This document shows, one piece after another, positions 16,891 to 63,995 of a stretch of DNA of 64,000 bases (position 1 is its first letter; each line of letters opens with the position of its first letter). Below the pieces are notes generated by a model. The model saw only the letters and a list, made by a program, of their open reading frames with translations. It had not been told where the DNA came from and searched no databases. The translations under genes and the position numbers were made by a program. The stretch spans positions 2,255-66,254 of the forward strand of contig CAYVXE010000011.1 in NCBI GenBank assembly GCA_964455375.1, written 5' to 3'. The DNA is from an uncultured Calditrichaceae bacterium. Its GTDB lineage: Bacteria > Zhuqueibacterota > Zhuqueibacteria > Oceanimicrobiales > Oceanimicrobiaceae.

Positions 16891-16928
16891 TTTTTATCTC
16901 CAATATTTTTATTTCAAAATAAAACTGC

Positions 16929-47268: not shown

Positions 47269-47292
47269 TTCATCTCCATTATGCTTTGCTGG

Positions 47293-49719
47293 TTAAAACT
47301 TAAAATTCACGCCTATGGTAGGCAAAATCGGGAACATACCAATGTTGTCAATAACGGGATTAAGTCTTTCGCCGTTGCTCGTGGGTTTGGCATCATAATC
47401 TACAAACCAGACATTCCTCCTGTAGCCAACATTAAAAATCTGAAGGTACGGAAAAAGCGACCAGGTCTTGTAATGCTTCTCGTAGGTAAAACTCAAGTCG
47501 AGCCGCATGTAGGGCGGCAATCTCAATTCATTAATGCCGCTGGGATAGACCTCATGACTCACAAAATCCCAATCGGGCGCCGTATTTACAAAATAAGTCG
47601 AACCCGGCAGGGTGATGGGTTGACCGCTGGTGTAAACAAAGGTAAACCCGATGCGCCAGTTTGATTTGTGCGGCACAGGCGCTTCGCCACGCATCCAGCG
47701 TTTGAAATTCTTCCAGTCGAGGCTACCCACCAGGTTCAACGCATGTGTACGGTCATGGCGTGGGGCAAATGCCCTTCCCTGATTGATTCGGTCAAATCTG
47801 TATTTTGTGGATGCAAGACTGTAACTCAGCCAACCGGTGATTGCGCCGTAATCCTTTCGCAGCAAAAACTCAATGCCTTTGCTGTCGCCATCCCCGCGAT
47901 TGAGGATGCCATCGGTTCGAGTATAAACCGGGCTTTCACCTTCATAGCGATCGGGAGTGACTTCTACGCTAAAGATATTGTTGAAAGCATAGATGTTTTT
48001 GTAATCCTTGTAAAAAGCCTCTACCTCAATTTGATAGTCATCAGAAAAATCCTTGCTAATTCCGATAATGGCGTGCCTGGATGAAGATTCTTTTTGGGAG
48101 CGGTTCGAAGCAACCCAATTATCTGCCAGAAATGTCTTTCCTATTCTGTGCAAATATTGGTAGTAGATGCCAGTAGCGGCCTTGAGGTTGATCGAGTCTG
48201 TGACACGATACTTTGCCGAAAAGCGTGGCGCCAGATTCTTGAATTTCCTTCCGGCGTCGAACAGGTTATAGCGCAATCCTGCTTCCACATCCCATCGGTT
48301 GGTCGGTTTCCAGTTTCCGGACAGGTAGGCCGCATAGTGCCTGGGCCGTCGGTTAATATCAATGATACCGCTCTCCCATTGACGCCTGAAAATCAAGTGT
48401 AGATTCTTTTGTTCAAATCCCAGGCCTAAGTTGAAGACGTCGGACACGTAGTATTCGAAATCGCCCTTAAATGAAATATCAGAGATAAAGTTCTTTTCCA
48501 CAAACACCTGATCGAAAGTCTGGCTGAAATCAGCCCTGGAATCGAAACGGCTGCCGGTCACCCAGAAGTTGGCAAACAATTGCGGCGAAAAAATGCGTGT
48601 CCATCGGATGCTGCCCGTACGGTTGCCCCAATCGTACGTGAGTCCGGTTCCGGCTTTGTCTTTAGCTCTTTGGTTGTAGGTCAGACCCAGGTTATCGGTG
48701 CTGCCATAGCCACTAATGGTCAGCTTATTCCTGTCGTTGAGGTCAAAGAACGCTTTGATATTGCCATCGAAGAAATAATAGTCCGGAGCGTTGTTGATAA
48801 ACGGGGCGACGGTCTTATCAAAGTAGGTACGTCGAAACGAGCCCGACAGCGAGCCGACATTGCCTATTGGCATCTGAATCGTCATTTTTGCGCTGAGCAG
48901 GCTAACAGAGCCGGTCGCCTCAAAGCGCTCACGATTACCATCCAGATTGATTACGCTCAGAACCGAAGACAACCGTCCGCCATATTTTGCTCCAAACCCA
49001 CCTTTGGAAAGCTCCACCTGTTTGATGGCGTCGGTAATGAAGGTGGAGAAAATGCCAAAAGCATGCTCAGGGTTATAAACGTCCGTCCCGTCCATCAAAT
49101 ACAGGTTTTGATCGGGTGTGCCGCCGCGCACATACAGCGCCGATGAAAAATCGGATACCGGCAAAACACCCGGCAGCGTTTGCAGCGACCTCAACAAGTC
49201 TGTCTCCGCCACCTGCGGAATTTGGTTGATTTGCCGTGGCGAGAGCCTGAGAGTGGACACGTCCTTCTCGAACAATTTTTCGGCTGTGGAAATCGTCTCG
49301 TCCGTAATAACAATTTTTTCCATGATAATATTTTTGGCATGTAAACTTACTTTAAAGGTCTTCTCGTCCCCAACCGTTAACGAGATATCTTGTCTGTAAG
49401 TTTTGTAGCCGATGTAGCGAACAATCAGTGTGTAATTACCGACAGGAACGTGCGGGATGACGTAGTAGCCGCTGCTGTTTGAGCTACTTCCGATTTGCGT
49501 TCCTTTCAGAAAGACGTTCGCGCCAATCAACGCCTCGCCGTTAGAGACATCATAAACGTAACCGCTGATTGTCGCAACCTGCCCGTCCTCGACAAATGCG
49601 AATGCACCAGAAGCCGCGGCTAGGCACAGCAAGATTAAGAGCTTTCTCATAAAAAAACCTCCTTTAATGCAAAACCGTAGTGTCACAAGTATGGGCTCAC
49701 TCCGGTCAGGCCCCCGCAA
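47293..49719 (-). CDS. TonB-dependent receptor with CarboxypepD_reg N-terminal domain
   Basis: QVATISGYVYDVSNGEALIGANVFLKG... is followed by a plug and a 22-strand barrel. It ends in F. Confidence 0.85.
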   Translation of the reverse strand: MRGPDRSEPILVTLRFCIKGGFFMRKLLILLCLAAASGAFAFVEDGQVATISGYVYDVSNGEALIGANVFLKGTQIGSSSNSSGYYVIPHVPVGNYTLIVRYIGYKTYRQDISLTVGDEKTFKVSLHAKNIIMEKIVITDETISTAEKLFEKDVSTLRLSPRQINQIPQVAETDLLRSLQTLPGVLPVSDFSSALYVRGGTPDQNLYLMDGTDVYNPEHAFGIFSTFITDAIKQVELSKGGFGAKYGGRLSSVLSVINLDGNRERFEATGSVSLLSAKMTIQMPIGNVGSLSGSFRRTYFDKTVAPFINNAPDYYFFDGNIKAFFDLNDRNKLTISGYGSTDNLGLTYNQRAKDKAGTGLTYDWGNRTGSIRWTRIFSPQLFANFWVTGSRFDSRADFSQTFDQVFVEKNFISDISFKGDFEYYVSDVFNLGLGFEQKNLHLIFRRQWESGIIDINRRPRHYAAYLSGNWKPTNRWDVEAGLRYNLFDAGRKFKNLAPRFSAKYRVTDSINLKAATGIYYQYLHRIGKTFLADNWVASNRSQKESSSRHAIIGISKDFSDDYQIEVEAFYKDYKNIYAFNNIFSVEVTPDRYEGESPVYTRTDGILNRGDGDSKGIEFLLRKDYGAITGWLSYSLASTKYRFDRINQGRAFAPRHDRTHALNLVGSLDWKNFKRWMRGEAPVPHKSNWRIGFTFVYTSGQPITLPGSTYFVNTAPDWDFVSHEVYPSGINELRLPPYMRLDLSFTYEKHYKTWSLFPYLQIFNVGYRRNVWFVDYDAKPTSNGERLNPVIDNIGMFPILPTIGVNFKF

Positions 49720-50619: not shown

Positions 50620-52920
50620 TTAAAAGCTGAAATTATAACTAATACTTGGGAGCACGGGCAGCAAAGAGACCTCTTTAGCCAGAGGTTTGCGAGAGACGGC
50701 ATCCACATCCACGTAAACAAAATAAGGATTGTGACGATTACTCAAATTGTAAACACTAAAAACTAATTCAGCATCGTAGGTTTTCTTGAAAATTCTGGTT
50801 TTGTGTTTGTAAGAGAATGTCAGGTCAAAGCGTTGATATCGCCTTAGACGATAATTGTTTTTGCCTGTATAAATATCGAAAACGCCATTGTACAAATCAC
50901 CGCCTTCAAAAATGTCAACTCTGCCTACGGGTAAAGTCATGGGGTGCCCTGTCGTAATAACAACGTCTGTAGATACTGTCCATTTTTTACTCAGTTCATA
51001 TACGGCTACGAACGATAAATCGTGCCGCTTGTCATACTTAAATGGGAATGACTTCCCAAAATTTAAGTCCTTAAACTGTTGATTCGTCCAGGACAGAGTA
51101 TAGGAAAGCCAGCCCGTGAAGCGACCTCTTGCTTTTCTTAGAAAGAACTCCACCCCATAAGACCATCCTTTGCCAAAAACAAGTTGTTTGTCTATGTTGG
51201 TCTGTTCGTCTAATCGAGTACCCTCCTTAAAAGCCACCTGGTTTTTCATGGTTTTATAATATGTCTCTATACTTGCTTCATACCTACCGTCGTGAAAATT
51301 ATGAAAATAACCGAGGGCAATTTGCTCAGAACGTTGCGGTTTGACCACATCGCTAGTTGGCAGCCAAATGTCTGTGGGAAGCGAAGCCGTGGAACTTGGG
51401 ACGAGGTGAACAAACTGATTCATCATTGTATAAGCTGCTTTTATAGAGGATTGGTGAGTCAAGGTGAATTTAGCTGTGGCCCTTGGCTCAATTCTATAAT
51501 AGGAAGCATTGCCACCGTGAAACCCCGGAACTCGCAAACCCAGATTCATTCCGAAACGGTCGGAAATATCAAACTCGTCATTAATATAAACGCTTGCTTC
51601 CGTGGCATATTTTATTTGAATGGTGCTTGTGTTAATAGTTGATACAAGAGAGTCTCGCGGGACAATGCCAGTGGTGCCGGTCGGGGTGAATGCATGATGT
51701 GTAAAATTGAGACCTAATCTAATAGTGTGGTGAGGGTTTGGGAAATATTCAAAATCCGTTTTCATGTTGAAATCATTTATTTTTGAATAAAACTCTGAGA
51801 AAAAATTGCCTTGAATCGTCTTGAGGTTGAGCAGATAAAAGTTATAAATTAGTGAAGTGTTGGCAAATAACTGATTTCCGAAAAGGTGATTCCAGCGAAA
51901 CGTTCCCGTGCTATTGCCAAATTTTAGAGCATAGTTAAGACTGTTAGCATCTATATAAGATGCGTTGTCCTTTCCTGTGAAAAAACTCAAAAATATTTTA
52001 TCTTGTTCAGAAAATTTATAATTGACCTTGGCATTCAAATCGTAAAAAATGTAATTGGTTTTCGAATTTCTTCTTGCTACTTTTTGTATTAAGTCCAAGT
52101 ATGTTCTACGAGAAGAAACTATGAAAGAGGCTCTATCTTTTAGAATAGGGCCTTCCACCGTCAACTTAGATGCTATCAATCCAAGACCACCGTCGACATG
52201 ATAGGATTTGTTATTTCCTTCTTTCATCGAAATTTTTAAAATAGAGGATAAACGGCCGCCGTATTGTGCCGGAAATCCACCTTTGATCATCGAAACATTA
52301 TTTATTGCCCTGGAATTAAATGTACTCAACAACCCGAAAAGGTGATTGGGGTTGTATACCACAGCTTCATCCAGCAGCACGAGATTTTGGTCTGCATTGC
52401 CGCCACGAACGTAAAATCCAGTAGTACCCTCCGAGCCTGACTGTACTCCCGGCAGAAATTGCAAGACTTTTAGCACGTCTGTTTCTCCAAGAATTGCCGG
52501 CAATTGCCTCACCATCCTCACAGGAACATCAATAACACCCATCTGCTTTCTTTCCACGTTTTCGTTTTTTTTTCGGGCTGTGACAACAAGTCCTTCCATA
52601 GAAATGGTTGTTGGCACAAGCCTGATGTCCAGTCTTAGGTTTCTTTTTATGAATAACTTCTTGACTTGTGGTTCATATCCAATGTAGGAAAAAACAGTTG
52701 TAACACTGTCAGCCACCGGAATTGAAATGGAATAGAAACCGTATGTGTTTGTTGTCGTCCCCAATCTTAGTTTGCTGACGTACACATTGGTGCCTATCAA
52801 CGCTTCGCCGTTGGAAGCATCATAAACGAAACCATTAATTGTTGCGACCTGCCCCCCCTGCCCAAATGCGCACGGTGTAAGGCCGGCGACAGTGCACAGT
52901 AAAATCAAAATCCTTCCCAT
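50620..52920 (-). CDS. TonB-dependent receptor with CarboxypepD_reg N-terminal domain
   Basis: QVATINGFVYDASNGEALIGTNVYV... is followed by a plug and barrel. It ends in F. Confidence 0.85.
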   Translation of the reverse strand: MGRILILLCTVAGLTPCAFGQGGQVATINGFVYDASNGEALIGTNVYVSKLRLGTTTNTYGFYSISIPVADSVTTVFSYIGYEPQVKKLFIKRNLRLDIRLVPTTISMEGLVVTARKKNENVERKQMGVIDVPVRMVRQLPAILGETDVLKVLQFLPGVQSGSEGTTGFYVRGGNADQNLVLLDEAVVYNPNHLFGLLSTFNSRAINNVSMIKGGFPAQYGGRLSSILKISMKEGNNKSYHVDGGLGLIASKLTVEGPILKDRASFIVSSRRTYLDLIQKVARRNSKTNYIFYDLNAKVNYKFSEQDKIFLSFFTGKDNASYIDANSLNYALKFGNSTGTFRWNHLFGNQLFANTSLIYNFYLLNLKTIQGNFFSEFYSKINDFNMKTDFEYFPNPHHTIRLGLNFTHHAFTPTGTTGIVPRDSLVSTINTSTIQIKYATEASVYINDEFDISDRFGMNLGLRVPGFHGGNASYYRIEPRATAKFTLTHQSSIKAAYTMMNQFVHLVPSSTASLPTDIWLPTSDVVKPQRSEQIALGYFHNFHDGRYEASIETYYKTMKNQVAFKEGTRLDEQTNIDKQLVFGKGWSYGVEFFLRKARGRFTGWLSYTLSWTNQQFKDLNFGKSFPFKYDKRHDLSFVAVYELSKKWTVSTDVVITTGHPMTLPVGRVDIFEGGDLYNGVFDIYTGKNNYRLRRYQRFDLTFSYKHKTRIFKKTYDAELVFSVYNLSNRHNPYFVYVDVDAVSRKPLAKEVSLLPVLPSISYNFSF

Positions 52921-53039
52921 GAAACAACCTCCTGTTTAGCTCCAAAACTATCATTCAAGGTTTTTGCGTTACAGCATCGCTCAAGATCGACTTCTTGCCG
53001 GGTCCTCAAGCGGGAAGTCCACAAAGTTTCCGGTACTTC

Positions 53040-54239
53040 CTATGAATCTTTTTCAACATTATGTTCGCGGATGTCATGCTTCTTTGTACCCAGCTCCCTC
53101 GCAAAAGCAGTCTCACTCATCAATTGCTTATAAATCTTCACATAAGCCTGTGCCGCACGGTCCCACGTAAAGTGCTTCGCCTTCTTCAAACCCTGTTTAC
53201 GCAGCCGTTCCCGGACTGAATTATCATTTATGATCGTTCGCATGGCGTTGGCGATTTCTGCAACCGAACTCGGGTCGTTGATCATCCATGCGGCGCCGGC
53301 CGCGATTTCCTTGAGCGAGGCGACATTGGACGCGATGACCGGGCAGCCAAAAGCGAAGGCCTCGATAACCGGCAGACCAAATCCTTCCCACAGCGAGGGG
53401 AAGCTAAGCAACAAAGCGTGCTTCATTAAGAAAGCGAGTTCAGCATTAGAAACGAGACCGGCATAGTCGATATGGTTCTCTATATTAAGTTGTCGCGCAA
53501 GTGCTTGCAACCGGGAGCGCGTGTCACCCCGCCCAACGACAAGTAACCGGACGTCGGCATGTCTCGGCTCGCGCCTTATTTGAGCGAAAGCGCATAGGGT
53601 GCCTTCCGGATTCTTATAAGGGCGCCCGTGCCCGACACTTAGAATAAACCGACACTCTCTGTAGCGCCGGATGTCAGCACTTACTTTACCCGAATTAAAA
53701 TCTTCACGACTGACGCCGTTGTGGATGACCGAAACTTGTTTTTGATTTTCCGGATACAGATAAAAAAGGTCTTGTCTGGTCTGGTTAGAAATACACACAA
53801 TATGATCAGCAACCCGCACCATTTGTGCATACATTGGTCGCCCATACAGGCTGTTCATCCATCCCTTCCATGGCACGGGAGCAGCGATGGATGGTCGTTG
53901 GATCCAGTTAAAATCGTGCACGGTGACAACCGTTTTCACAGTTCTTGGTACACAAAACGGGAGGAAGTCGTGTAGTGAATGATAAATGGATGGCCGATAG
54001 CGCTGCAAGATACGTCCAAAGTAAAAAGCGTTGCGCAACGACGCGATATCATAAGGGAAATGAACGATACGAAACCGCGGGTCTGAAATGATAGGCTCCG
54101 TGACAGATGTCCGTTGGATTAGCAGATACTCATTTTTGTCATCAAACCGCGCTATATTACGAATGAGGTTACCCGCGACGCGTCCGAGACCGGTGTGCAC
54201 TTCGCGTACGCTACGCGCATCAAAAGCAATAACTCCCAT
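53040..54239 (-). CDS. GT4-family glycosyltransferase (paralog B)
   Basis: 399 aa. It is about 70% identical in amino acids to 40025-41209, with long runs of identical nucleotides. It carries the EGFGLPVIEAFAFGCPVIASNVASLKEIAAGAAWMI block. Confidence 0.85.
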   Translation of the reverse strand: MGVIAFDARSVREVHTGLGRVAGNLIRNIARFDDKNEYLLIQRTSVTEPIISDPRFRIVHFPYDIASLRNAFYFGRILQRYRPSIYHSLHDFLPFCVPRTVKTVVTVHDFNWIQRPSIAAPVPWKGWMNSLYGRPMYAQMVRVADHIVCISNQTRQDLFYLYPENQKQVSVIHNGVSREDFNSGKVSADIRRYRECRFILSVGHGRPYKNPEGTLCAFAQIRREPRHADVRLLVVGRGDTRSRLQALARQLNIENHIDYAGLVSNAELAFLMKHALLLSFPSLWEGFGLPVIEAFAFGCPVIASNVASLKEIAAGAAWMINDPSSVAEIANAMRTIINDNSVRERLRKQGLKKAKHFTWDRAAQAYVKIYKQLMSETAFARELGTKKHDIREHNVEKDS

Positions 54240-54285
54240 GATCTTTCTCCCGATTAAATTATACTGTTACAACAGTCATTTTCGA

Positions 54286-55476
54286 TTAGTAAATTATTGC
54301 CGTGAGCCCGAGACTAACCGTAAACGCACTTAAGCCATCGGAACGGTTATAACGTGCAAAACGCAAATCAACTCTCTTTAAACCCAAAGCCTTGTTTCCC
54401 AGGATGACCGACAGCGGATAGTAGCGCAGACCAAAACCGTATTTGTTGCTGTGGAATGCGGCAAGGTCATAGTCCGAGGTGTAATACGCATCATCGGGCT
54501 GGTGCTGCCCAAATTTCGCGAAGTATTTGGCCCTGCTTTGATGATGATAACGGTAGAACGGCTTGACGGAAATCGCCCGGCTTATTCGCAACGGTAACTC
54601 GACGCTGAAAGTGTTGGCGCTGATTTTGAAATCATCGCGAAAGTAGCGGTAGTAAAAACGCGTGATCACAAAGTCGTTCACGTAGTAATTAAAACGCAGC
54701 GCCACAGGCAGTTTGAACCGCGTGCTCGGTAGCCTTTCGATTCTCGGTAAAGATTCACCCGAAAAATAGACCCGGTGGAAAGGCGTGGCTAAATAGCCGG
54801 TTTGATAGACAACATCAGTGTTAATCGAGGCCTGTGCCCTTTTTGACAGCACCTGTGAGTAGGTAACCGAGAGATTATACGTTTTTCTACCTGTGGACGG
54901 GTAGCTTAGCTCTTCGTTGTGAATTTGCTGTTCGGGCGGACGTAATTCAAACGGCGTGATCAGATCGAGATTGTCCAGGAACGCCTGGCCGCTCACATTC
55001 AGTTCTCTGTTTCCATCCAGAGACGATTTTGCCCAATTGGCTCCAAATGAGAATGAGCGGTAATCGTACTCGGCGGAGGCTCCAACATTGATGCCGTAGG
55101 TGGTTGTGCTGTTCGGATTGGTGATGCGATAGCCGACGTTCACATGGGTGCGCGTGTCCCCACTAGAGGCGCCGGACACCACAGGATCGATATTGTCCGA
55201 GGACGCGGACGAGTAAACGTCGACTCCCAAGTTCAGGGAAAGTTGCTGGTTGCTTTTGATCGGCAGGTTGACAATAATCATTGGAGCTGAATCATGCAAT
55301 TGCTCCGTACCGTTGCCGCCAGTGACCGCCGAATGATCGCCAGCCTGCCTATAATAGTCCAGAAGAAAGTTGACCTCAATCGGATGGCGCTTTCCTGAAT
55401 TATTCTCTTGAGAATAGAGACCTGTGGCCCCGGTAAAGAACAGAACTAAAACCAGAAGTCTGCTGATTAATTGCAT
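54286..55476 (-). CDS. DUF3570-family putative outer-membrane beta-barrel protein
   Basis: A signal peptide is followed by Tyr/Arg-rich amphipathic beta-strands. It is the last gene of the ApbE operon and overlaps DUF4266 by 10 nt. Confidence 0.65.
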   Translation of the reverse strand: MQLISRLLVLVLFFTGATGLYSQENNSGKRHPIEVNFLLDYYRQAGDHSAVTGGNGTEQLHDSAPMIIVNLPIKSNQQLSLNLGVDVYSSASSDNIDPVVSGASSGDTRTHVNVGYRITNPNSTTTYGINVGASAEYDYRSFSFGANWAKSSLDGNRELNVSGQAFLDNLDLITPFELRPPEQQIHNEELSYPSTGRKTYNLSVTYSQVLSKRAQASINTDVVYQTGYLATPFHRVYFSGESLPRIERLPSTRFKLPVALRFNYYVNDFVITRFYYRYFRDDFKISANTFSVELPLRISRAISVKPFYRYHHQSRAKYFAKFGQHQPDDAYYTSDYDLAAFHSNKYGFGLRYYPLSVILGNKALGLKRVDLRFARYNRSDGLSAFTVSLGLTAIIY

Positions 55477-55691
55477 CCGCAGCCTCCACCGACTTTGCCG
55501 CCGTTGGCCCCGGCAGCGCCCTCGCGGTAGGTTTCGAAATTGGTTTCGTATACTTGCAGGTTTTCATCCGCCAACTGCATATCTTCATCGTTCAAATACA
55601 TTTTCTGGTAGGGCTTGACCGAGGCGCAGCTCGTGTAAAAACCACACATGCTCACGACACCGGCTACGAGGATCCAATTGATTCGCTTCAT
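55467..55691 (-). CDS. DUF4266-family small lipoprotein
   Basis: 74 aa with a lipobox (FYTSCAS) and a C-terminal Gly/Cys tail (GGGCGCN). It overlaps ApbE by 4 nt. Confidence 0.65.
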   Translation of the reverse strand: MKRINWILVAGVVSMCGFYTSCASVKPYQKMYLNDEDMQLADENLQVYETNFETYREGAAGANGGKVGGGCGCN

Positions 55692-56728
55692 CTCATCGTT
55701 CCTTTATAAAAATTCAGATGCAAATTCTTCGACGTGAAGATCAGGTTCCGGTCATTGATTAGGAGACCCTCAATCCTGTCCAGGCGATTGAGGAGATCGA
55801 TGCCGTCCTTTTCGCCCAGAATAAATACCGAGGTGGCCAGAGCGTCGGCCAGTTCTGCATCGGGACAAATGATAGTGACGCTCTTAGTGCCCGTGGCCGG
55901 CATCCCGGTTTTGGGATTGATGATATGCGTGTAGCGCTTGCCATCGAATTCCACATATTTTTCGTAGTTGCCGGAGGTGACCACCGCCTGATTGCTCATG
56001 TTTAACCAACAGAAGGTTTTGTCCTTGTCATTGGGGTCGGTGATACCAATCTTCCAATCCTGACCTTTTTCTTGTGTACCCCAGGCTATTAAATCGCCAC
56101 TGGCGTTCACCACCCCGCTGGTGATGCCCATGGCCACCATCACGGCTTTCGCTCTGTTTGCGGCATAACCTTTGCCAATGCCGCCAAAGCCAATTTTCAT
56201 CCCCTTTTCTTTCAGGAAAACTGTATGATTTTTCGCAACCAAAATGATATTTTTGTAATTTACTTTCGCAACCGAGGTCGCCAATTCCTCCTTGGTGGGA
56301 AGCCGGGTCATAGAGCCGTCAAATTTCCAGATTTTGTCCATGGACGCGTAAGAGACGTCGAAAATACCATTGGTTAGTCGGGAAACTTTCTTGCTGCGGC
56401 GAATGAGCTCAAACAATTCTTCATCTACCGCCAACGGCCGGACACCGGCGTTGCGGTTAATCAGACTGGTTTGAGAATTCGGGTTCCAAGACGAGATCAT
56501 CTTTTCGATGCGTTGGATTTCCCGAATGGCCGCTTCGATGCCGCGCCATGCCAGAGCCTCGTCGTCAGATACGGCGATGATCTCAAAGCGCGAGCCCATG
56601 AGCTTAAGTACCTTTTTATAAGTGTGAGTCGCAGTCTTGTCCACTGCCCCCCAACTGCCCGTGGTGCTTGCTGAGATGATCAAGAAAGAGAAAATAAGAA
56701 TCGTGAGTACTTTACTTTGAGCCTTCAA
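55688..56728 (-). CDS. apbE: FAD:protein FMN transferase (ApbE family)
   Basis: A signal peptide is present, with the ApbE-typical blocks GIGKGYAAN, VNASGDL, VVTSGNYE and THIINPKTG. Confidence 0.8.
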   Translation of the reverse strand: MKAQSKVLTILIFSFLIISASTTGSWGAVDKTATHTYKKVLKLMGSRFEIIAVSDDEALAWRGIEAAIREIQRIEKMISSWNPNSQTSLINRNAGVRPLAVDEELFELIRRSKKVSRLTNGIFDVSYASMDKIWKFDGSMTRLPTKEELATSVAKVNYKNIILVAKNHTVFLKEKGMKIGFGGIGKGYAANRAKAVMVAMGITSGVVNASGDLIAWGTQEKGQDWKIGITDPNDKDKTFCWLNMSNQAVVTSGNYEKYVEFDGKRYTHIINPKTGMPATGTKSVTIICPDAELADALATSVFILGEKDGIDLLNRLDRIEGLLINDRNLIFTSKNLHLNFYKGTMR

Positions 56729-57383
56729 CCTGTGCCAATCTTATTTTGCCGATTAATCTTTTCAAGTGTGCAACATACTTCCCGGCGTCTTCGCGCTGGT
56801 ATCCGCTAATACGGCCAGCTACGTTGCCATCCTTATCGAGTAAAACAACCAGAGGAAACTCGCCTCTTTGGTTGTATCTCTCAGCCAGGTGCTCATTATA
56901 GGCAGCCTGCTCTCTGGAAAGCCGGTTCCTCTTTCGCGCTGGAAAATCGATGCGCACAAGTAGCAGATTCTCCCTGGCAAACTTTGTGAAAACTTTCGAT
57001 TCGAACACCCCCTGTTCCAACAGCATGCACGGGCGGCACCAGTCAGAACCCGAGAAGCAAACCAGTATCGCTTTCTGATCCTTCTGTGCTTGCCTTTCCG
57101 CCTGTTCAAGATTTGTAAGCCAGGGTGAGAGAGGTTTTCCATTTCTGTGGTCTGTAAAACCAGTTAAGAGCATTGTCATTACAAGTGAGAGCAGGAACAG
57201 AAGACCTCCTGCTTTCCGGTTTCGAGAGTTGATCCTCGGACCGATTGAAAAGATCAACATGGGTTTATCATCCTTGTTAGCATTCTGTTGCAGAAATACG
57301 CTACGCTGATTTTTGCATTCCATCCCGAACCAGCGTCTCGCAAAAGCGCGTAAGAAAACAGTTTTGAATTTTGCAGATTTCAT
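56712..57383 (-). CDS. Membrane-anchored thioredoxin-fold protein (TlpA/DUF255-like)
   Basis: A TM anchor is followed by a periplasmic domain with a WCRPC redox motif (Cys-x-x-Cys). It overlaps the upstream lipoprotein gene by 4 nt. Confidence 0.7.
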   Translation of the reverse strand: MKSAKFKTVFLRAFARRWFGMECKNQRSVFLQQNANKDDKPMLIFSIGPRINSRNRKAGGLLFLLSLVMTMLLTGFTDHRNGKPLSPWLTNLEQAERQAQKDQKAILVCFSGSDWCRPCMLLEQGVFESKVFTKFARENLLLVRIDFPARKRNRLSREQAAYNEHLAERYNQRGEFPLVVLLDKDGNVAGRISGYQREDAGKYVAHLKRLIGKIRLAQVEGSK

Positions 57384-58120
57384 TCGCTCACCACGTTTAT
57401 GAGTTCAACTCGCTCGGAGCCGCCTTGCACGGTGACTTCGAGAACACACCCTATTCCCGGCACATAGTATTTGTTGGCAACAATGTCCGGCTCAAGTGGG
57501 CTCCACTCTTTGGTCTTAAGACAGTTCGTAAAGGTCCCATAGGGCACTGTGACCCTTTCGTTCAAACCGAGCACTTCAGCCATGTCTTCGGCCACGGCCC
57601 GGTAGAATTCCTGCCGGTAGGTTCCCCCTACTTTTGGCATGGCTTCCATGATGATGCCTGGTTTGGCGCCATCGGCGCCGGCTTCCCATGAGCCTTCTGT
57701 GCCGGCCTGCACCCCGCCTTCAAACTGTTTGGAATCCTCGCCAAAGTACCAGACATTACCGTCCGTGTCCTGCGCATACCAGTCGAAGGTAGCCTCGATC
57801 AAGTCTCCTTCGAGCCAGACGCTGTCCGCAACCACCACGCACGCAACCCCCAGGATGTCTCTTGTTTCATGAGTGACATAGACTTTGTCGATTTCAGTAC
57901 CGTCCGCTGTCTTGCCTTTGTAGTTGGAAAGGGTCCCAGGCGTTAAAGGGAAAAGAAGATTGGTAACCTCTGTGACAAAATTGGCAGGATCGATGATCGG
58001 GTTGTAATCCAAGCTGTCGTGGTTCTTTGAGGAACGCTTGCACCCGCTTGCCAACAAGACAATGAGCATGATGACGAAGGGAGTCACGGTTGTCCTGCTT
58101 GAGCAAAATCTCTGTCTCAC
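57380..58120 (-). CDS. Lipoprotein of unknown function, first gene of ApbE operon; paralog of 35012-35833
   Basis: It uses a GTG start with an AAGGAG Shine-Dalgarno. The lipobox is LLASGCK. It shares conserved blocks with the 35012-35833 protein. Confidence 0.55.
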   Translation of the reverse strand: MRQRFCSSRTTVTPFVIMLIVLLASGCKRSSKNHDSLDYNPIIDPANFVTEVTNLLFPLTPGTLSNYKGKTADGTEIDKVYVTHETRDILGVACVVVADSVWLEGDLIEATFDWYAQDTDGNVWYFGEDSKQFEGGVQAGTEGSWEAGADGAKPGIIMEAMPKVGGTYRQEFYRAVAEDMAEVLGLNERVTVPYGTFTNCLKTKEWSPLEPDIVANKYYVPGIGCVLEVTVQGGSERVELINVVSE

Positions 58121-58633
58121 CTTATCTTACTCCTTTTTTTTGTTGTTGTATGAAAACTGCTGGCAGCAAATCAAAAACGCAATAGCGATCGGCTCGCGCT
58201 AAGACTGTGCTTGTAGATTTGCTTTTGATGCATCGCCACAAAATTCCGCCGTCAAGGTGCTATATCGATCCCATCAAAGAACCGCCAGCCCAAAACGGTC
58301 GCCCGTTTCATGAATTCACAATTCTATGTATTCTTTGTCTGGTTCTTAACTTGAGATGATCGCTTTCTGACACGTCAAAAACTATGCCACGCAAAAGAAA
58401 AAGCACTCAGTTAGACAGGTCTTTTTAGCCATGTCAGAGCTTAGAATATAGGCATTTTTAACCTCAGAAAGAGCGGTTGTCAAAAAGTTGACGCCTAACT
58501 ATCGAGCCTGACATTAGAAAGTCTTTAGTTTACAAGCTGTTGAGGTATTGACAATGAAAAACACAAATTGCGTCAAATTCTTGACACGAGATGACCGTGT
58601 GACGACAGTAGGTTTGAAAGCTACCGGCTGCCT

Positions 58634-59770
58634 TCATCTGACAAAGTTCAAACCGATTGAAATGGAATTGATTTCGTATTTGTAGGGATGCAAATTAGTC
58701 CTGTTGGTTTCAAAAGTATACCGAAGATCGAGACTGATCTTTCTTGATAATTTAAAGCGGATTTTATTCGAGAGAAATACTAATTTATCCCGGCGTTTTG
58801 GGCCTTTCGGTGTTATAAGCCAATACTGAAATCCCTTTGTATAAAACTGATAAAACAACAGAAATGAGATTTTAGGGGTTGCTTTAAAAAGTACGGAAAA
58901 AGAACTCAGGTGTTTACGATAGCCAAAATCAGAGTCTTCGGACAAAAACTCCTCTGAGTCTTCATCGTCAAAATTTTCACCTTTCTGGTTTACGTTGAAA
59001 GCATCGGCATTATCCAATTCATATCTATAGCTGAAGTTTGTTATAAATCTACGATTGAACACTTTATCCACATTTAGCCGGAATACGTAACGGTTGCCCC
59101 GATTATTAAGCGGCTGTTTCGGTGCTGTACTGCCGACGTACAGGTTACCCTCATGATTTTGGAATTCAATTTTTAATCCCAAATTTGCACCGTGAGAAAA
59201 CTCATGTCCGAATTTTAAATTTACCCTGTTACTGATATAGCTCTTTAAGGAAGAATTGCTGGTGTAAGTTTTGAACCAGTTTTGATAACCTATGGAAAAA
59301 TCGTTTCGTCCTGAAACTTTGAGTTTAAAAATGAAATCCAGAATATTTCTTCGATAGTTGAATGCATTGAACGATGGGTGCAAACGGAACCGCAATTCAT
59401 CTGATGCTGTTAGAAGAAATCGGTCTCCCAGGCCTTGCCTGAATTTGCCTTCAAGGGTTTGATCGTAGCGTGTAAAGTTCTTAAACTCACCATAACGGTA
59501 GTGTTGCAAATCATAGTTAAAAGCAATTTTGCTATGACCGGGAATCTCCCACTGTTTTTTAATATGGAAGAACAGGCCAACGCGAATGTCTTCCTCTTGA
59601 TCTATACTGGGTTGACGCGTAATGTTACTTCGAAATTCTCCGGATACTTTTCCCTGAAAATATAAAGGAAGGTCCTTCTGGCCGTACACGAAAGAGCTTT
59701 GACAGCATACAACCAAAACATACAGACTAAGCTGCAATGTAAATTTCTTGAATAGCATATTGGATCTCAT
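58634..59770 (-). CDS. Putative outer-membrane beta-barrel protein
   Basis: A signal peptide is followed by Tyr/Phe-rich alternating strands. The C-terminus reads GLNFVR (terminal aromatic-x-basic). Confidence 0.45.
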   Translation of the reverse strand: MRSNMLFKKFTLQLSLYVLVVCCQSSFVYGQKDLPLYFQGKVSGEFRSNITRQPSIDQEEDIRVGLFFHIKKQWEIPGHSKIAFNYDLQHYRYGEFKNFTRYDQTLEGKFRQGLGDRFLLTASDELRFRLHPSFNAFNYRRNILDFIFKLKVSGRNDFSIGYQNWFKTYTSNSSLKSYISNRVNLKFGHEFSHGANLGLKIEFQNHEGNLYVGSTAPKQPLNNRGNRYVFRLNVDKVFNRRFITNFSYRYELDNADAFNVNQKGENFDDEDSEEFLSEDSDFGYRKHLSSFSVLFKATPKISFLLFYQFYTKGFQYWLITPKGPKRRDKLVFLSNKIRFKLSRKISLDLRYTFETNRTNLHPYKYEINSISIGLNFVR

Positions 59771-59779
59771 ACTTTATTT

Positions 59780-60694
59780 CTATTTTTGATTATTTGAGGT
59801 TATGGTGTCCCTAAAGCGTCCTATTTTGACTTTGATGTGCCTGATATCTTGCTGTAACACCGCCATCTGATTTTTCAATTTTGCGCTTTCTCCATCCAAA
59901 TTATCGATTTTCTCCTGCAATTCATCAAGACGATTATGATCAAAAATATCCTGATCGTCATCAAGTGATTCTTCTAACTCCTTGTAAAAATCGAGTAGCT
60001 CCAGATAAGTTTTGCGTTCGCTTTGAATTTTTTGATTGTCTGTTTTAAGTATAGTTGAGTAATTACCCAGGTTTTTCAGAAAATCTTCAAGCAAAGCCAT
60101 TTTGAGTTTTAGCCGTCTAATAGAATCTCCTGATTCTATCCGTATTTTTTCCCAACCCTTCTCATCAATTTGCATTTTTTGCAGGCGGTTGGAATAGACG
60201 GTCATTTCGTCTTCCAGATCACTAATATAGTCCAGTTGACGTTTACTGCGATTCTTATCATGGCCATTGAGTTTCACATGGCTCATTTCTTGCCCTATGG
60301 CTATTTGTATTTGTCCAATAGCGGCCTTATATACTTGCTGTAATCTTAATCTTTCCTTCCGTAAATATTGGCTTGTCGCGTCGATACTATCCGCCAATTG
60401 ATGAGAGATTCTCAGCGCATTCTGCATTTGCAAACGAGAGAGCGGGTTCATTCCTTGACGCTTCTCGACTTTATACTTATAGATTTCCCTGTTGACTTTA
60501 TTGAATTCTTTTGACAGGCCGGTCATAACCTTTTGTTTCTGCTCGATAGTATGTTGAAGAGAGCGAATCAAAACTCTGAGACTATCCAATTCAGTTGCCC
60601 GCACCGACATACATACGACCAGACTGGCAATATTGATAAGTACAAGAATCGTTTTTAATTTTTTGAAAAAATCAATGTCGTAACAACGTTTCAT
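59780..60694 (-). CDS. Coiled-coil protein of unknown function
   Basis: An N-terminal TM or signal segment is followed by about 270 aa of heptad-rich Glu/Lys/Gln sequence. It overlaps the response-regulator stop. Confidence 0.45.
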   Translation of the reverse strand: MKRCYDIDFFKKLKTILVLINIASLVVCMSVRATELDSLRVLIRSLQHTIEQKQKVMTGLSKEFNKVNREIYKYKVEKRQGMNPLSRLQMQNALRISHQLADSIDATSQYLRKERLRLQQVYKAAIGQIQIAIGQEMSHVKLNGHDKNRSKRQLDYISDLEDEMTVYSNRLQKMQIDEKGWEKIRIESGDSIRRLKLKMALLEDFLKNLGNYSTILKTDNQKIQSERKTYLELLDFYKELEESLDDDQDIFDHNRLDELQEKIDNLDGESAKLKNQMAVLQQDIRHIKVKIGRFRDTITSNNQK

Positions 60695-62115
60695 TCAAAT
60701 TTGAACCTTAAAAGATCATGCTTTTCCATTTTATAGCGCAATGTGGTTCTTTTGAGCCCGAGGAGTTTCGCCGCCTGGGATATATTCCCCCGGGCCTCCA
60801 TCAATGCATTAAAAATCAATTGCTTTTCATAGTCATCCATGCGTTTGGTATAATTGTCTTCAGAATTCAGGTCATCATCTAAAGGGGTATGGTCAACGTT
60901 AATCTCATTTAAAATATTGGGGGTCAAATCATCCACATCGATGATGGCATCGGCAGACAATACGCTGGCGCGTTCTATGACATTTTCTAATTCTCTAATG
61001 TTTCCCGGCCATGTGTAGGCCAGTAAGTATTTCAGTGCTTTTGGTGAAATTGTTTCGATCTTCTGTCCGCCGATTTCACTTACTTTTCTCATGAAATGTC
61101 GAACAAGTGCGGGAATGTCTTCCAACCTTTCTCGCAGGGGCGGAAGATCTATGGCAACAACATTCAGGCGATAAAACAGATCTTCACGAAAGTCGGAACC
61201 TTTCATTCGTGACTCTAAATTCTGATTTGTAGCCGCGATGACGCGTGCTTGCATGGATAACGTTTGTGTACCACCAACACGCTCAAATTCTCTGTCTTGC
61301 AGAACGCGCAACAACTTTACCTGTACGGTGGGAAAGATTTCCCCGATTTCATCGAGAAAAATTGTGCCACTCCCGGCAAGTTCAAATCTCCCGAGTTTGG
61401 TTTTCAAGGCACCTGTAAAAGCGCCCCGTTCATGGCCAAAAAGCTCACTCTCCAGTACCCCCACAGCAAGTGCTGCACAATTGACTTTTATGAAGGGTTG
61501 ATTGGCCCTTGGACTTAGATAATGAAGTGCTCTGGCAACCAATTCTTTACCGGTACCGCTTTCACCAAGTATTAAAACAGGTGAATTTGCCGGCGCCGCT
61601 TTCCTGACTATGGAAAAAACTTGCTGCATTTTGGGAGATTGGCCAATAATATCAGAATAAGGACTATGTACTTTTTCCCCTGACTTGAATACGTTTTTCT
61701 GCTCTGAGAAATGGTCCGTTTCCAAGTTTTGCTGGATGAATACTTTGTTGATTTTGATTTCGATCTCCTCAACCGTAAAAGGTTTTGCGATATAATCAAA
61801 AGCCCCAAACTTCATGGCTTCAACAGCATTCTGAATCGTTCCAAAAGCAGTAATAATGACCACGGGAACGTCAGGGTCGATTTCATGCACTTGCTTCAGA
61901 AGTTCCAAACCGGATTTACCGGGAAGCTTCACATCAGTTATGATCAAATCGACCTGAGATGAATTAAAAAGCTCGAATGCTCGTTCAGCACTATAAGCCA
62001 CCAGCGCCCTATTCTTATGTTCTTCGACAATTTTCTTTATCGCGTCGGTGGTACTTTGATGATCATCAACAATCAAAATTGTTTTCATTTGTGCCCGTTC
62101 TCCCTTACAAATCAT
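60691..62115 (-). CDS. Sigma-54-dependent response regulator (NtrC family)
   Basis: Three domains are present. The receiver reads ILIVDDH...DLIITDVKLPG. The AAA+ sigma-54 activator has GESGTGKE, ESELFGHERGAFTGA and GNIREL. The C-terminus is a Fis-type helix-turn-helix. Confidence 0.9.
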   Translation of the reverse strand: MICKGERAQMKTILIVDDHQSTTDAIKKIVEEHKNRALVAYSAERAFELFNSSQVDLIITDVKLPGKSGLELLKQVHEIDPDVPVVIITAFGTIQNAVEAMKFGAFDYIAKPFTVEEIEIKINKVFIQQNLETDHFSEQKNVFKSGEKVHSPYSDIIGQSPKMQQVFSIVRKAAPANSPVLILGESGTGKELVARALHYLSPRANQPFIKVNCAALAVGVLESELFGHERGAFTGALKTKLGRFELAGSGTIFLDEIGEIFPTVQVKLLRVLQDREFERVGGTQTLSMQARVIAATNQNLESRMKGSDFREDLFYRLNVVAIDLPPLRERLEDIPALVRHFMRKVSEIGGQKIETISPKALKYLLAYTWPGNIRELENVIERASVLSADAIIDVDDLTPNILNEINVDHTPLDDDLNSEDNYTKRMDDYEKQLIFNALMEARGNISQAAKLLGLKRTTLRYKMEKHDLLRFKFE

Positions 62116-63995
62116 ATATTCAAGATAACTTTTGTGCCTTTTGGAATGTTATTTTTAACAATTATCGTGCCATTGTGTGCAGTTATAACATTTTTCACAA
62201 TCGCCAGGCCAAGGCCTGTACCCTGGCTGCGAGTAGAATAAAAAGGCTGAAAAATTTTATCCAGACGGTCCGGGGCAATGCCCATACCCGTGTCTGCAAT
62301 TTCAATCTGGACGTGTTTTGCTTTTTTAGAATTGGTCAGGGACACAGCACTTACTGTTAAGGCACCACCTGTTTCCATAGACTGGACCGCATTCAGCACC
62401 AAATTCAAAAGCACCCTCTTGAGTTGCTCAAAATCACCATGAATTTTTAGGTTTTTATTCCGCAGGTTTAATCGTACATCGATCTCTTTCTCCTGTAAAT
62501 CCTTAAATGCCAGAAACATCACCTCCTGAAATAGTTTCGAAACCAAAACATTCTCCGTCTTCAATTCGTTTGGCCGGGCGAAGGTCAGAAAATCCGTGAT
62601 AAACGTATTTAGGGTTCGAATCTCTCTTTGTATATTATTTATCGCCTGTTCACGTTCTGTTTGATCACTGATCCGCCTTTTCAACAGTCCCACAAACAAT
62701 TCTATTGAGTTCAGGGGATTCCGGACTTCATGCGCCACGGTTGCAGAAAGTTCTCCCAGATATGCCAATCGTTCTTTCTCACTTATCTCATCCTGCAATT
62801 TGCGGATTTCGGTTAAGTCTGTAATTACAAAATTTACCCCAATTGTTTTTTTATTCGAATCGACCAGGGGCGAGACTTCCACAGAAAGAATTTTATTGCT
62901 TTCGGGCAAAACAATTTCCACTTCTTTTTTTGTCTGATGAGGAACCGAATGCAGCATCCGTTTTATGAAAGGAAAAAATGGATGATTTTTTCCGAACACT
63001 TCCGTGTATTTCATACCGGTTGCCTGCTTCCGGAACAATAACAAAATTCGTTCGGCCGCTGGATTTATAATCGTCATGGTGCCCTGCAAATCAAAGGTCA
63101 TAATGCCATGGGCAATACTGCGTAAAATATAATTATTATAAGATTGAATGGATTCTGCTCTGCCTTCGGCAACTCGTTTTAGTTTTTTTAACCGTTCCTC
63201 TTTGATTTTGATGTTTTCCTGCATCGAATTGAAAACTTGGGCTAAAAACCCAATTTCATTTTTTGAGGTCATCATAACTGGTTGAGTAAAATCACCGCTG
63301 CTAACCCGTTGCGCCGCATCTACAAGCAATCGCACCGGTTTCAAAATAGACCGAGCGAGAACGAGGCTTATCAATACAGCCAAACCGACACTGACCAGAT
63401 TAAGTATCAGGATCAGATTTTCTATACGGTCGATGACATGCAAAAATGCAGGACTGGCATCTACACAAACGGCTGCAACCACCTGACCATGGTTATCAAA
63501 CACGGGGGCGTAGGCTGATTTATATAAATTACCGTCATAATTGCGATAAAGCGTTGAGAAGGTTGCTTTACCGTTCAGGGCAGATTCAACCTCTGGAAGA
63601 TTGATTTTCAGTTGTGGCGGGACTACACCAATTGGTGATTCTGTGTTCGTATCGAGTAGTGTTTTGAATGTTCGGTCTATAAGAAAAATTCGATTGACGT
63701 TAAAATCCTTTTTAAGTACTTCCAAATTGATCTGCAATTCTTTATAAAACTGCCCTCCTTCGTAGCCGGGTTTCAAAAATTCAAGCAAATCAGCATCGAT
63801 CAGATCAGACTCCGTTTCGGCCAAACTAATGAGTGTTTGCCCCAACTCAGAATCAAAGTAGTCCCGAGCCCTTGAATAAAAGAACCATCCGGCGATATTT
63901 AAAACAACGATCACCGTGAAAATTAAGGAAAATACAATCTGGTATTTCAATCCCCGTCTGCGAGGACTCAATGTTGCTGCATCTTCGTTCTTCAT
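62112..63995 (-). CDS. Sensor histidine kinase (periplasmic Cache-like sensor - HAMP - PAS - HisKA - HATPase)
   Basis: Two TM helices flank a periplasmic domain of about 170 aa. The H-box is ATVAHEVRNPLN. The N, G1 and G2 boxes are LLNLVLNAVQ, DTGMGI and GTGLGL. The 5' end is within 6 nt of the window edge, so the start is not fully verifiable. Confidence 0.85.
   Translation of the reverse strand: MKNEDAATLSPRRRGLKYQIVFSLIFTVIVVLNIAGWFFYSRARDYFDSELGQTLISLAETESDLIDADLLEFLKPGYEGGQFYKELQINLEVLKKDFNVNRIFLIDRTFKTLLDTNTESPIGVVPPQLKINLPEVESALNGKATFSTLYRNYDGNLYKSAYAPVFDNHGQVVAAVCVDASPAFLHVIDRIENLILILNLVSVGLAVLISLVLARSILKPVRLLVDAAQRVSSGDFTQPVMMTSKNEIGFLAQVFNSMQENIKIKEERLKKLKRVAEGRAESIQSYNNYILRSIAHGIMTFDLQGTMTIINPAAERILLLFRKQATGMKYTEVFGKNHPFFPFIKRMLHSVPHQTKKEVEIVLPESNKILSVEVSPLVDSNKKTIGVNFVITDLTEIRKLQDEISEKERLAYLGELSATVAHEVRNPLNSIELFVGLLKRRISDQTEREQAINNIQREIRTLNTFITDFLTFARPNELKTENVLVSKLFQEVMFLAFKDLQEKEIDVRLNLRNKNLKIHGDFEQLKRVLLNLVLNAVQSMETGGALTVSAVSLTNSKKAKHVQIEIADTGMGIAPDRLDKIFQPFYSTRSQGTGLGLAIVKNVITAHNGTIIVKNNIPKGTKVILNI

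Follow-up and report, generated by a model that had tools for sequence, protein, structure and literature searches.

Do the five consecutive open reading frames (ORFs) on the minus strand at positions 54286–58120 of a 64,000-nt stretch of DNA from an uncultured Calditrichaceae bacterium (the window) form one functional system, and which of their products carries the flavin? The ORFs lie at 57380–58120, 56712–57383, 55688–56728, 55467–55691, and 54286–55476 (genes 1–5), and successive genes overlap by 4, 17, 4, and 10 nt when the longest ORFs are used. The first-pass annotation had reported five genes over this span, and the ORFs, their coordinates, and their family assignments are real. Its overlaps of 4–17 nt depend on start codons: the 4 nt between genes 1 and 2 require Met1 of the latter, and the 17 nt require a TTG start of the ApbE gene. 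The proposed coupling is tight for the last four genes, which encode a thioredoxin-like protein, ApbE, DUF4266, and DUF3570. Profile searches confirmed DUF3570 (PF12094, 2.7e-28, 99.4 bits versus a cut-off of 25) and DUF4266 (PF14086, 5.2e-19, 69.4 bits), and these hits, like those to ApbE and Thioredoxin_7, exceed the gathering score.

This cluster type has a precedent. Méheust, Huang, Rivera-Lugo, Banfield, and Light defined the ApbE/DUF3570/Thioredoxin_7/DUF4266 flavinylation cluster in 2021 (eLife 10:e66878, PMC8238504), and their survey counted 543 of them. Overall, the locus is best explained by genes 2–5 (54286 to approximately 57260) being a complete copy of this DUF3570-type extracytoplasmic flavinylation module, a reading that we regard as rather probable. 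The earlier description of an uncharacterized envelope flavin/redox module thus holds for an envelope-located flavin and thiol redox module but not for "uncharacterized", since the cluster type is already defined and DUF3570 flavinylation has been demonstrated. In Chlorobium luteolum, the cognate ApbE was shown experimentally to flavinylate two serines of DUF3570, and in-gel flavinylation was abolished only when both were mutated; the protein was flavinylated even though it was recovered from the insoluble Escherichia coli pellet, with constructs lacking signal peptides (PMC8238504).

The gene neighborhood was surveyed in 80 related genome loci. The order thioredoxin–ApbE–DUF4266–DUF3570 on one strand is kept in approximately 70 of them, whereas the five-gene set including the lipoprotein of gene 1 occurs in none. 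Any further gene family is common to at most 12 loci, and in the three closest relatives these four genes stand between unrelated flanks. DsbD (PF02683), whose co-localization is an optional trait of the cluster type, is present in 227 and absent from 316 of the 543 published clusters (PMC8238504). It adjoins the module in none of the 80 surveyed loci, and no DsbD- or CcdA-like ORF was recognized in the window by a crude check of transmembrane segments and cysteines and a Pfam scan covering part of the ORFs. The window module therefore falls in the subclass without an adjoining DsbD gene. The published link of DUF3570-type clusters to VIT1 iron transporters (PMC8238504) was seen again in five surveyed loci. 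In six loci, the module is adjoined by the gene of a cell-surface flavoprotein, of the DUF2271 family and carrying a type IX secretion tail, and in L094 the gene of a Por_Secre_tail protein comes after DUF3570.

ApbE (55688–56728, minus strand) is an FAD:protein FMN transferase (PF02424, 4.8e-84, 282 bits) homologous to the solved flavin transferases 1VRM (3e-44), 7ESA, and 4IFU. Automatic gene callers picked a 303-aa form without a signal peptide. The TTG start, which gives 346 aa, is supported because it supplies an N-terminal signal peptide (MKAQSKVLTILIFSFLIISA...) and because the closest relatives have 333–341 aa; relatives in general have 330–350 aa, signal peptides, and similar N-termini. 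A Pfam search of the five products and three neighboring products found neither NqrB–F or RnfA–G subunits nor an FMN_bind substrate. The predicted target is not an NQR or RNF subunit, a possibility raised in the first-pass annotation, and DUF3570 is a predicted barrel without FMN_bind.

The predicted ApbE substrate is DUF3570 itself (54286–55476, minus strand), a protein of 396 aa with a signal peptide, a C-terminal end of ...AIIY, and 2,089 homologs. Site A (D86-V-Y-S-S-A-S92, 55201–55221, minus strand) fits D-x-x-[ST]-x-A-[ST], with Ser replacing the usual Gly, and site B (V-S-G-A-S104, 55165–55179, minus strand) has the canonical SGAS core, with Asp97 at −7 and not at −6. S90, A91, and S92 are invariant among 120 close relatives, as is S104 (120/120), and among 128 diverse representatives S92 and S104 are each retained in 127. 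At both sites, S-S-A-S is the sequence found in most relatives. ApbE modifies 7-residue peptide tags and tolerates Gly-to-Ala or Asp-to-Ala changes in the motif (PMC12052999). When the window ORFs of at least 80 aa were scanned with D-x-x-[ST]-[GSA]-A-[ST], the only match was in DUF3570. The first-pass annotation had found no target motif in the five products because its pattern, D-x-x-[ST]-G-A-[ST], was too strict for either site; it had placed the substrate possibly elsewhere and given DUF3570 no function, and both statements give way to gene 5 as the predicted substrate, of a family with an experimentally shown ApbE substrate in C. luteolum (PMC8238504). Since the two tandem serine motifs match the two reported serine sites, we infer that S92 and S104 are equivalent to the mutated C. 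luteolum serines.

The AF2 model of DUF3570, which the first-pass annotation had suggested making, is a confident 16-stranded outer-membrane barrel. The protein has the traits of such barrels: a signal peptide, an even count of long antiparallel strands closing the barrel, and a C-terminal aromatic residue. In the model, the odd-numbered strands are followed by 9, 16, 2, 22, 24, 4, 27, and 4 residues and the even-numbered strands by 2, 4, 5, 4, 4, 8, and 11. This pattern places both flavin sites on the long-loop side. Site B falls in the loop between strands 3 and 4, with pLDDT below 50 at residues 101–104. Both termini of outer-membrane barrels are, as a rule, periplasmic, and the loop orientation follows from this general rule, the AF2 model itself giving no membrane orientation. 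Both flavin serines would thus lie in the long strand 3–4 loop, on the outward or lumen side. The flavinylated protein of the module is accordingly modeled as an outer-membrane barrel with predicted outward-facing flavin serines, a point that is new here.

DUF4266 (55467–55691, minus strand) has 74 aa, a signal peptide, Cys22, and a Gly-rich tail ending in GGGCGCN-COOH. The codons of its C-terminal C-G-C motif (55473–55481, minus strand) contain the DUF3570 start codon (55474–55476) within the Gly-Cys codons, and the embedded ATG that gives the 10-nt overlap is also found in 26 of 84 loci. In 77 related loci, a Cys at the lipobox position stands immediately before the mature region, and GGGCGCN is the C-terminal end in 74 of these 77. 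Judged by its sequence, DUF4266 is of the lipoprotein type with a near-invariant C-terminal GGGCGCN, which is also new here; we found no discussion in the searchable literature of the outward-loop barrel of DUF3570 or of the near-invariant C-G-C of DUF4266.

The thioredoxin-like protein (56712–57383, minus strand; PF13899, Thioredoxin_7, 5.6e-12, 46.1 bits versus a cut-off of 27) has an N-terminal signal or anchor and a W-C-R-P-C motif (codons at 57027–57038, minus strand). Its relatives mostly have 137–163 aa, and their alignments begin at approximately query residue 41–104, with one exception at residue 15. These shorter relatives make Met42 at 57260 the probable start, giving 182 aa and a gap of about 120 nt after gene 1. 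The best solved relative is 2JU5 (3.5e-14). The best NCBIfam model is DsbH (NF043050), but the score of 88.2 bits is below the equivalog cut-off of 190, so the protein is related to DsbH and not a member. The protein is probably reducing because it is DsbH-like and has the C-x-P-C that is found in most relatives.

From these features, we propose a pathway. ApbE is predicted to be exported and to transfer FMN from FAD onto the DUF3570 serines, in line with the published experiments on orthologs, DUF3570 keeping two tandem target sites at S92 and S104. As the flavin loop is predicted to face the outward or lumen side, ApbE would act on the unfolded chain in the periplasm, before barrel insertion. 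The thioredoxin-like protein would receive electrons from a DsbD or CcdA protein whose gene lies elsewhere, and would hand them on through thiol-disulfide exchange to the C-G-C at the DUF4266 C-terminus. DUF4266 may bind on or inside the barrel and pass the electrons to the FMNs. The reduced FMNs could then serve an acceptor at the outer membrane or beyond it, such as ferric iron, the published suggestion for DUF3570-type systems (PMC8238504). More tentatively, and with low confidence, DUF3570 and DUF4266 may form a conduit that carries electrons through the outer membrane without haem, in which two covalent FMNs on outward loop 2 are attached before insertion and lipid-anchored DUF4266 extends its Gly-rich C-G-C tail from the periplasmic side into the barrel, linking the thioredoxin/DsbD thiol pool to extracellular acceptors (iron or surface DUF2271 flavoproteins).

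The flavins may instead face only the periplasm or the barrel lumen, DUF3570 being an outer-membrane anchor for a periplasmic reductase, e.g., of imported ferric chelates, and no conduit. Folding back into the lumen is common among long barrel loops, the model has low confidence at site B, and the VIT1 link, both published (PMC8238504) and seen again in five loci, fits such a role. On the other side, the strand and loop pattern sets both sites on the long-loop side, a cell-surface DUF2271 flavoprotein adjoins the module in six loci, and a Por_Secre_tail protein follows DUF3570 in L094; we hold this possibility to be doubtful. The electrons may also run in the opposite direction, in an envelope flavin-dependent sulfhydryl oxidase passing them from substrate or thioredoxin-like thiols via the DUF4266 C-G-C and the DUF3570 FMN to oxygen or another external oxidant. 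C-X-C disulfides are comparatively oxidizing, and the Erv and QSOX oxidases run on flavin-disulfide pairs. The absence of DsbD from beside the module in all 80 loci and from 316 of 543 published clusters (PMC8238504) is consistent with such an oxidase. It is unlikely, however, given a Thioredoxin_7 member whose nearest characterized relative, DsbH, is annotated as a disulfide reductase, the C-x-P-C of most relatives, and the DsbD in 227 published clusters (PMC8238504).

Gene 1 (57380–58120, minus strand) encodes a lipoprotein whose fold is a soluble beta-barrel of the DUF3108-like or LolA-like kind, and no Pfam family matched its ORF. Its paralog at 35012–35833, noted in the first-pass annotation, was confirmed (32% identity over 217 aa, E = 1e-34), whereas the label of a lineage-specific lipoprotein fails against a family of more than 7,400 homologs, which occur in Chloroflexota and in archaeal-type gene context, among others. 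A syntenic relative, L083, has a gene 1 ortholog (74% identical) in the same synteny and no flavin module. Beyond the module, 46 nt downstream, lies a GT4 glycosyltransferase gene (53040–54239, minus strand; Glycos_transf_1, 6e-34), a host-synteny neighbor that is 75% identical to its L083 ortholog; in L083, one 287-aa ORF separates the latter from the gene 1 ortholog. A sigma-54-like motif (TGGCATAGTTTTTGA, 58375–58389, minus strand), 255 nt upstream of gene 1, is likely the promoter of the transcription unit. Exact matches to TGGCAT-N5-TTGA number four in the window versus 0.24 expected, each of them minus-strand and preceding a lipoprotein gene; an exact TGGCATAGTCTTTGA is present at the orthologous position in L083, and a sigma-54 activator gene lies at 60691–62115. 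Gene 1 and the glycosyltransferase gene may thus belong to a sigma-54-driven host envelope operon with the four-gene cassette inside.

This context bears on the first-pass view that all five genes, including gene 1, are one functional system, a distinctive local variant whose substrate is elsewhere or has a non-canonical motif. In favor of this view, gene 1 shares the strand of the other four, its stop codon reaches 4 nt into the thioredoxin ORF in its longest form, no terminator-like site was found between the two genes, and co-transcription from the sigma-54-like site is plausible. Nevertheless, that view is very unlikely and largely refuted by the survey: gene 1 homologs are absent from all 80 module loci and from the three closest relatives, the very large family occurs in Chloroflexota and archaeal-type context without ApbE, L083 keeps gene 1 without the module, and the predicted substrate is DUF3570 itself. 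The absence from the surveyed loci and the module-free synteny of L083 show the window module to be a four-gene cassette between two host genes, gene 1 probably being a co-transcribed neighbor outside the conserved module. It is highly improbable that DUF3570 serves as a barrel for polysaccharide export in partnership with the adjoining GT4 enzyme. No adjacent GT4 homolog was found in the 80 loci (L079 has one weak match at a distance of about 9.8 kb), the fold resembles generic 16-stranded barrels with no more than 12% identity, and the DUF3570 family constantly accompanies ApbE and DUF4266 and has invariant predicted flavinylation serines.

As a copy of the published module, the window locus matters little alone, the cluster type having been catalogued 543 times and its key biochemical step demonstrated. 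A modeled barrel with flavin serines in a predicted outward loop and a constant C-G-C lipoprotein partner make the physiological role of the family easier to test. Should the trans-outer-membrane reading hold, it would provide a cytochrome-free route of extracellular electron transfer widespread in Bacteroidota and relatives. In Bacteroidota, Calditrichota, and related bacteria, the conduit would then parallel the MtrAB porin-cytochrome, with thiols and flavins as its redox groups.

The window module shares with the clusters of Méheust et al. the four families PF02424, PF12094, PF13899, and PF14086, a secreted ApbE, a CXC at the C-terminus of DUF4266, and, as predicted here, a pair of Ser-type ApbE motifs in DUF3570. 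It differs from some of them in having no nearby DsbD, which places it in the group of 316, from the type in its setting, a probable envelope operon of sigma-54 type with a lipoprotein gene on one side and a GT4 gene on the other, and at site A, which is S-S-A-S versus [ST]-G-A-[ST]. NqrC and RnfG share the transferase chemistry and a D-x-x-[ST]-G-A-[ST]-like target whose last residue, Ser or Thr, is the one modified, but they reside in the cytoplasmic membrane, whereas DUF3570 is a predicted outer-membrane beta-barrel without an FMN_bind domain and with two adjacent sites, and NQR/RNF subunits are absent here. DsbH and DsbD-dependent reducing pathways likewise have a Thioredoxin_7-fold periplasmic protein with W-C-x-x-C, DsbH (2JU5) being the nearest solved and NCBIfam relative, but the partner genes here are specific to the flavinylation module. 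The 16-stranded barrels PgaA and PelB have 12% sequence identity with DUF3570, which, unlike them, has no TPR domain and no polysaccharide gene link across the family. In MtrCAB of Shewanella, an outer-membrane barrel houses a redox carrier and has a partner on the periplasmic side, so that electrons could cross the outer membrane; the likeness to the module is conceptual only. The module has no haems, its 16-stranded barrel is smaller than MtrB, and there is no homology; its carriers would be covalent FMN and a C-G-C thiol pair, and its role as a conduit is our proposal.

The ORF listing reproduced exactly the five consecutive minus-strand ORFs of the first-pass annotation: a lipoprotein gene (gene 1, 57380-58120; 246 aa, GTG start), followed by genes for a thioredoxin-like protein (56712-57383; longest ORF 223 aa), ApbE (55688-56728; 346 aa, TTG start), DUF4266 (55467-55691; 74 aa), and DUF3570 (54286-55476; 396 aa). 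The Pfam scan gave no family for the gene 1 product and bore out the proposed names of the other four, all of which exceed the gathering score: Thioredoxin_7 (5.6e-12), ApbE (4.8e-84), DUF4266 (5.2e-19), and DUF3570 (2.7e-28). Taking the longest ORFs, the overlaps are 4, 17, 4, and 10 nt, within the reported 4-17 nt, and two of them hinge on the choice of start. The TTG start of ApbE is supported because it supplies a signal peptide and the ApbE proteins of the closest relatives are 333-341 aa long. Met1 of the thioredoxin-like protein is a doubtful start; its relatives mostly have 137-163 aa, and the alignments start at approximately residue 41-104 except in one case (residue 15). From Met42 (57260), the protein would comprise 182 aa with an ordinary signal or anchor sequence, leaving approximately 120 nt after gene 1.

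A neighborhood survey with one genome per species yielded 80 loci from more than 600 matching stretches, almost all in Bacteroidota and one in Calditrichaeota. In tblastn searches with the window proteins, the genes for the thioredoxin-like protein, ApbE, DUF4266, and DUF3570 occurred in one order and on one strand at approximately 70 loci, while the other 10 or so were mostly cut by contig ends or lacked ApbE and the thioredoxin-like protein only. DUF4266 is the most constant neighbor of DUF3570. In 77 loci its signal peptide ends in a Cys that immediately precedes the mature V-K-x-Y-Q-K region, and its C-terminus is GGGCGCN in 74 of the 77. In the window, as in 26 of 84 loci, the Gly-Cys codons of this tail contain the ATG of DUF3570, so that the two genes overlap by 10 nt. 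The thioredoxin-like protein has the motif W-C-R-P-C, and most relatives have C-x-P-C. DsbH is its nearest characterized relative, with an NCBIfam score of 88 bits, short of the cut-off (190), and a match to the solved structure 2JU5 at 3.5e-14.

The first-pass scan with D-x-x-[ST]-G-A-[ST] had found no ApbE target in the five products, but this pattern missed two sites in DUF3570. Site A is D86-V-Y-S-S-A-S92, where Ser stands in place of the canonical Gly, and site B is D97-P-V-V-S-G-A-S104, where the Asp is one residue farther off. According to a review of ApbE (PMC12052999), seven-residue tags are enough for flavinylation, and changing the Gly or Asp of the motif reduces flavinylation without abolishing it. 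Among the window ORFs of at least 80 aa, the sole match to D-x-x-[ST]-[GSA]-A-[ST] is site A. S90, A91, S92, and S104 are invariant in 120 close homologs, and S92 and S104 are each conserved in 127 of 128 representatives (50%-identity clusters, down to 32% identity), in which [ST]-S-A-S is the most frequent form at both sites. Chlorobium luteolum DUF3570 was flavinylated on co-expression with its cognate ApbE, and abolishing this modification required changing both serines to alanine (PMC8238504). Since the window protein likewise has two tandem serine motifs, we infer that S92 and S104 correspond to these serines; the C. luteolum protein is absent from the best 120 or 150 homologs and from the 80 loci. 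A nearly invariant motif, Q-[DE]-G-x-[HN]-S-A-V-T-G-G-x-G-T-E, lies in loop 1 (55303-55344, minus strand; residues 45-58), with 127 of 128 relatives retaining Q44, G46, and G54 and 123 retaining G53. Its core, Q-x-G-x-x-S-A-V-T-G-G-x-G-T (residues 44-57), was considered as the first flavinylation site and dropped in favor of S92, because serine is the residue at both published sites, Thr predominates at position 57, and S-A-S92 stands in a D-x-x-S-x-A-S frame. The loop 1 motif is not of the ApbE type.

The AF2 model of DUF3570, built on a 61-sequence alignment (pLDDT 90.4, pTM 0.84), has a signal helix (residues 2-22) followed by 16 long strands forming the barrel predicted in the first pass. 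The C-terminus, ...AIIY, is typical of a C-terminal sorting signal. In the model, odd-numbered strands are followed by long connections (9, 16, 2, 22, 24, 4, 27, and 4 residues) and even-numbered ones by short connections (2, 4, 5, 4, 4, 8, and 11 residues). S92 and S104 both lie in the low-confidence loop between strands 3 and 4 (residues 90-105). Outer-membrane barrels have both termini in the periplasm. By this general rule, the modeled loop would face outward or the lumen, suggesting that ApbE modifies the periplasmic chain while it is still unfolded. Such action is consistent with the peptide-tag data and with the flavinylation of the insoluble, cytoplasmically expressed C. luteolum protein. 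The word "barrel" is nowhere used in PMC8238504; a 2024 publication by that group hints at the outer-membrane localization of a flavinylated domain.

Building on these gene identities, flavinylation sites, barrel fold, and cassette structure, and on the ApbE-dependent double flavinylation established for an orthologue (PMC8238504), we propose a route for electrons. DsbD or CcdA encoded elsewhere would reduce the thioredoxin-like protein, which would pass electrons to the C-G-C of the lipoprotein DUF4266, from there to the two FMNs in barrel loop 2, and finally to an acceptor at or beyond the outer membrane. Electrons might alternatively flow in the reverse, oxidase direction; the annotation of DsbH in NCBIfam as a disulfide reductase favors flow towards the flavins. 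The module might also have a role in the periplasm only. At six loci in Bacteroidota (L048, L057, L068, L076, L080, and L082), the module is adjoined by DUF2271, the other published ApbE substrate, here carrying a C-terminal domain for type IX secretion (e.g., L076, 10573-11340). This module-adjacent copy carries D-A-V-T-G-A-T and would be a flavoprotein bound for the cell surface. Together with a Por_Secre_tail protein after DUF3570 in another locus (L094, 8398-9732) and VIT1 adjoining the module in five loci, it favors an outward role. A reading of DUF3570 as a polysaccharide channel is very unlikely; by tblastn, the glycosyltransferase gene downstream of it (GT4, 53040-54239, minus strand) adjoins the module at none of the 80 loci.

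The reading that includes gene 1 as a fifth member is decisively countered by L083, a syntenic relative that retains gene 1 and GT4 without the module, so that the cassette comprises four genes. L083 has, in order, a histidine kinase, a sigma-54 response regulator, orthologues of a 304-aa and a 378-aa protein of the window, gene 1 (74% identical), GT4 (75% identical), a TonB-dependent receptor, and DUF4249. The place that the module has in the window, between gene 1 and GT4, is taken by a single unrelated 287-aa ORF, which puts the cassette between two host genes. The conserved neighborhood excludes gene 1, which had no tblastn homolog at any of the 80 loci, and clustering of all flanking ORFs gave no further family in more than 12 of them. 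The three closest relatives (DUF3570 53-55% identical) carry these four genes as well, in three contexts unrelated to one another. The gene 1 family has more than 7,400 homologs at 55-74% identity, Chloroflexota included, with no ApbE nearby in the contexts examined. The proposed paralogue at 35012-35833 is genuine (32% identity, E = 1e-34). A sequence search of the PDB with the gene 1 protein gave nothing significant, and fold comparison alone is informative. One homolog (P0192, 64% identical; L084-L086) lies near a TATA-binding-protein gene and archaeal-type HTH regulators. The former points to archaea, and the lipoprotein-like family seems to span bacteria and archaea at high identity.

The cassette may have been gained in the window or lost in L083. 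A search for repeats on either side of it, as an insertion could leave, gave just two short ones, both within the genes and probably due to chance. The gene 1-GT4 block has 47-53% GC and the whole window 43% on average, which is weak evidence of transfer since 40025-41209 and 44666-49719 are equally GC-rich.

The cassette is probably expressed from a host sigma-54 promoter. Four copies of the sigma-54-like motif TGGCAT-N5-TTGA lie in the window, where 0.24 would be expected; none of 100 shuffles reached four. All copies are on the minus strand, upstream of gene 1 (58375-58389), its paralogue (35830-35844), and two mutually paralogous lipoprotein genes, 23431-24228 (motif 24290-24304) and 20451-21212 (motif 21315-21329). 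An exact copy occupies the orthologous position in L083 (5319-5333), ahead of an intact gene for a 190-aa outer-membrane protein (5382-5954). A remnant of this gene in the window, at 58191-58259 (minus strand; 78% identity over 23 aa), explains the length of the spacer upstream of gene 1 (513 nt). Just upstream are genes for a sigma-54 activator and a histidine kinase (60691-63995), and the window may contain a small envelope regulon under sigma-54. Scans for terminators and sigma-70 promoters were uninformative, their results lying near the shuffled expectation, and no FMN or other riboswitch matched Rfam at E ≤ 1 in 52900-58800.

Gene 1 and GT4 each recur as a paralogue in another block of the window, at 35012-35833 for gene 1 and 40025-41209 for GT4; an MMPL transporter (36028-38424) and a Wzx-like flippase (38481-40028) are encoded between the two. 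This suggests that the lipoprotein and GT4 cooperate on a glycolipid or polysaccharide of the surface. By eye, the two GT4 proteins have very similar N-termini. The 378-aa protein (58634-59770; 59% identity in the syntenic relative) matched the BBP2_2 and EpsL outer-membrane barrel models weakly, below thresholds, and is a further hint at an exopolysaccharide-like host operon. Elsewhere, two ORFs at 15844-18257 resemble cytochrome bd oxidase subunits II and I in their N-termini and transmembrane patterns, which would suggest a microaerobic or aerobic lifestyle.

The first-pass observation holds for the most part. Its interpretation was partly right about the kind of system and wrong on novelty, substrate, and fifth gene. 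Méheust et al. (2021, eLife; PMC8238504) had already defined clusters of ApbE, DUF3570 (PF12094), a thioredoxin-like protein (PF13899), and DUF4266 (PF14086). Given this definition and the C. luteolum flavinylation, the module, earlier taken as uncharacterized, is of a published kind, and the ApbE substrate, for which the first pass considered a gene elsewhere or a non-canonical motif, is DUF3570. That study left the physiological function open and proposed a link to iron via VIT1. The find in the window is itself modest; follow-up interest lies in the function of the whole family and the barrel and loop topology of DUF3570. Flanking-ORF clustering placed DsbD beside the module at none of the 80 loci, and the published clusters number 227 with DsbD and 316 without it. 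Their DUF4266 is described as carrying a strongly conserved CXC at its C-terminus, as in the GGGCGCN tail found here.
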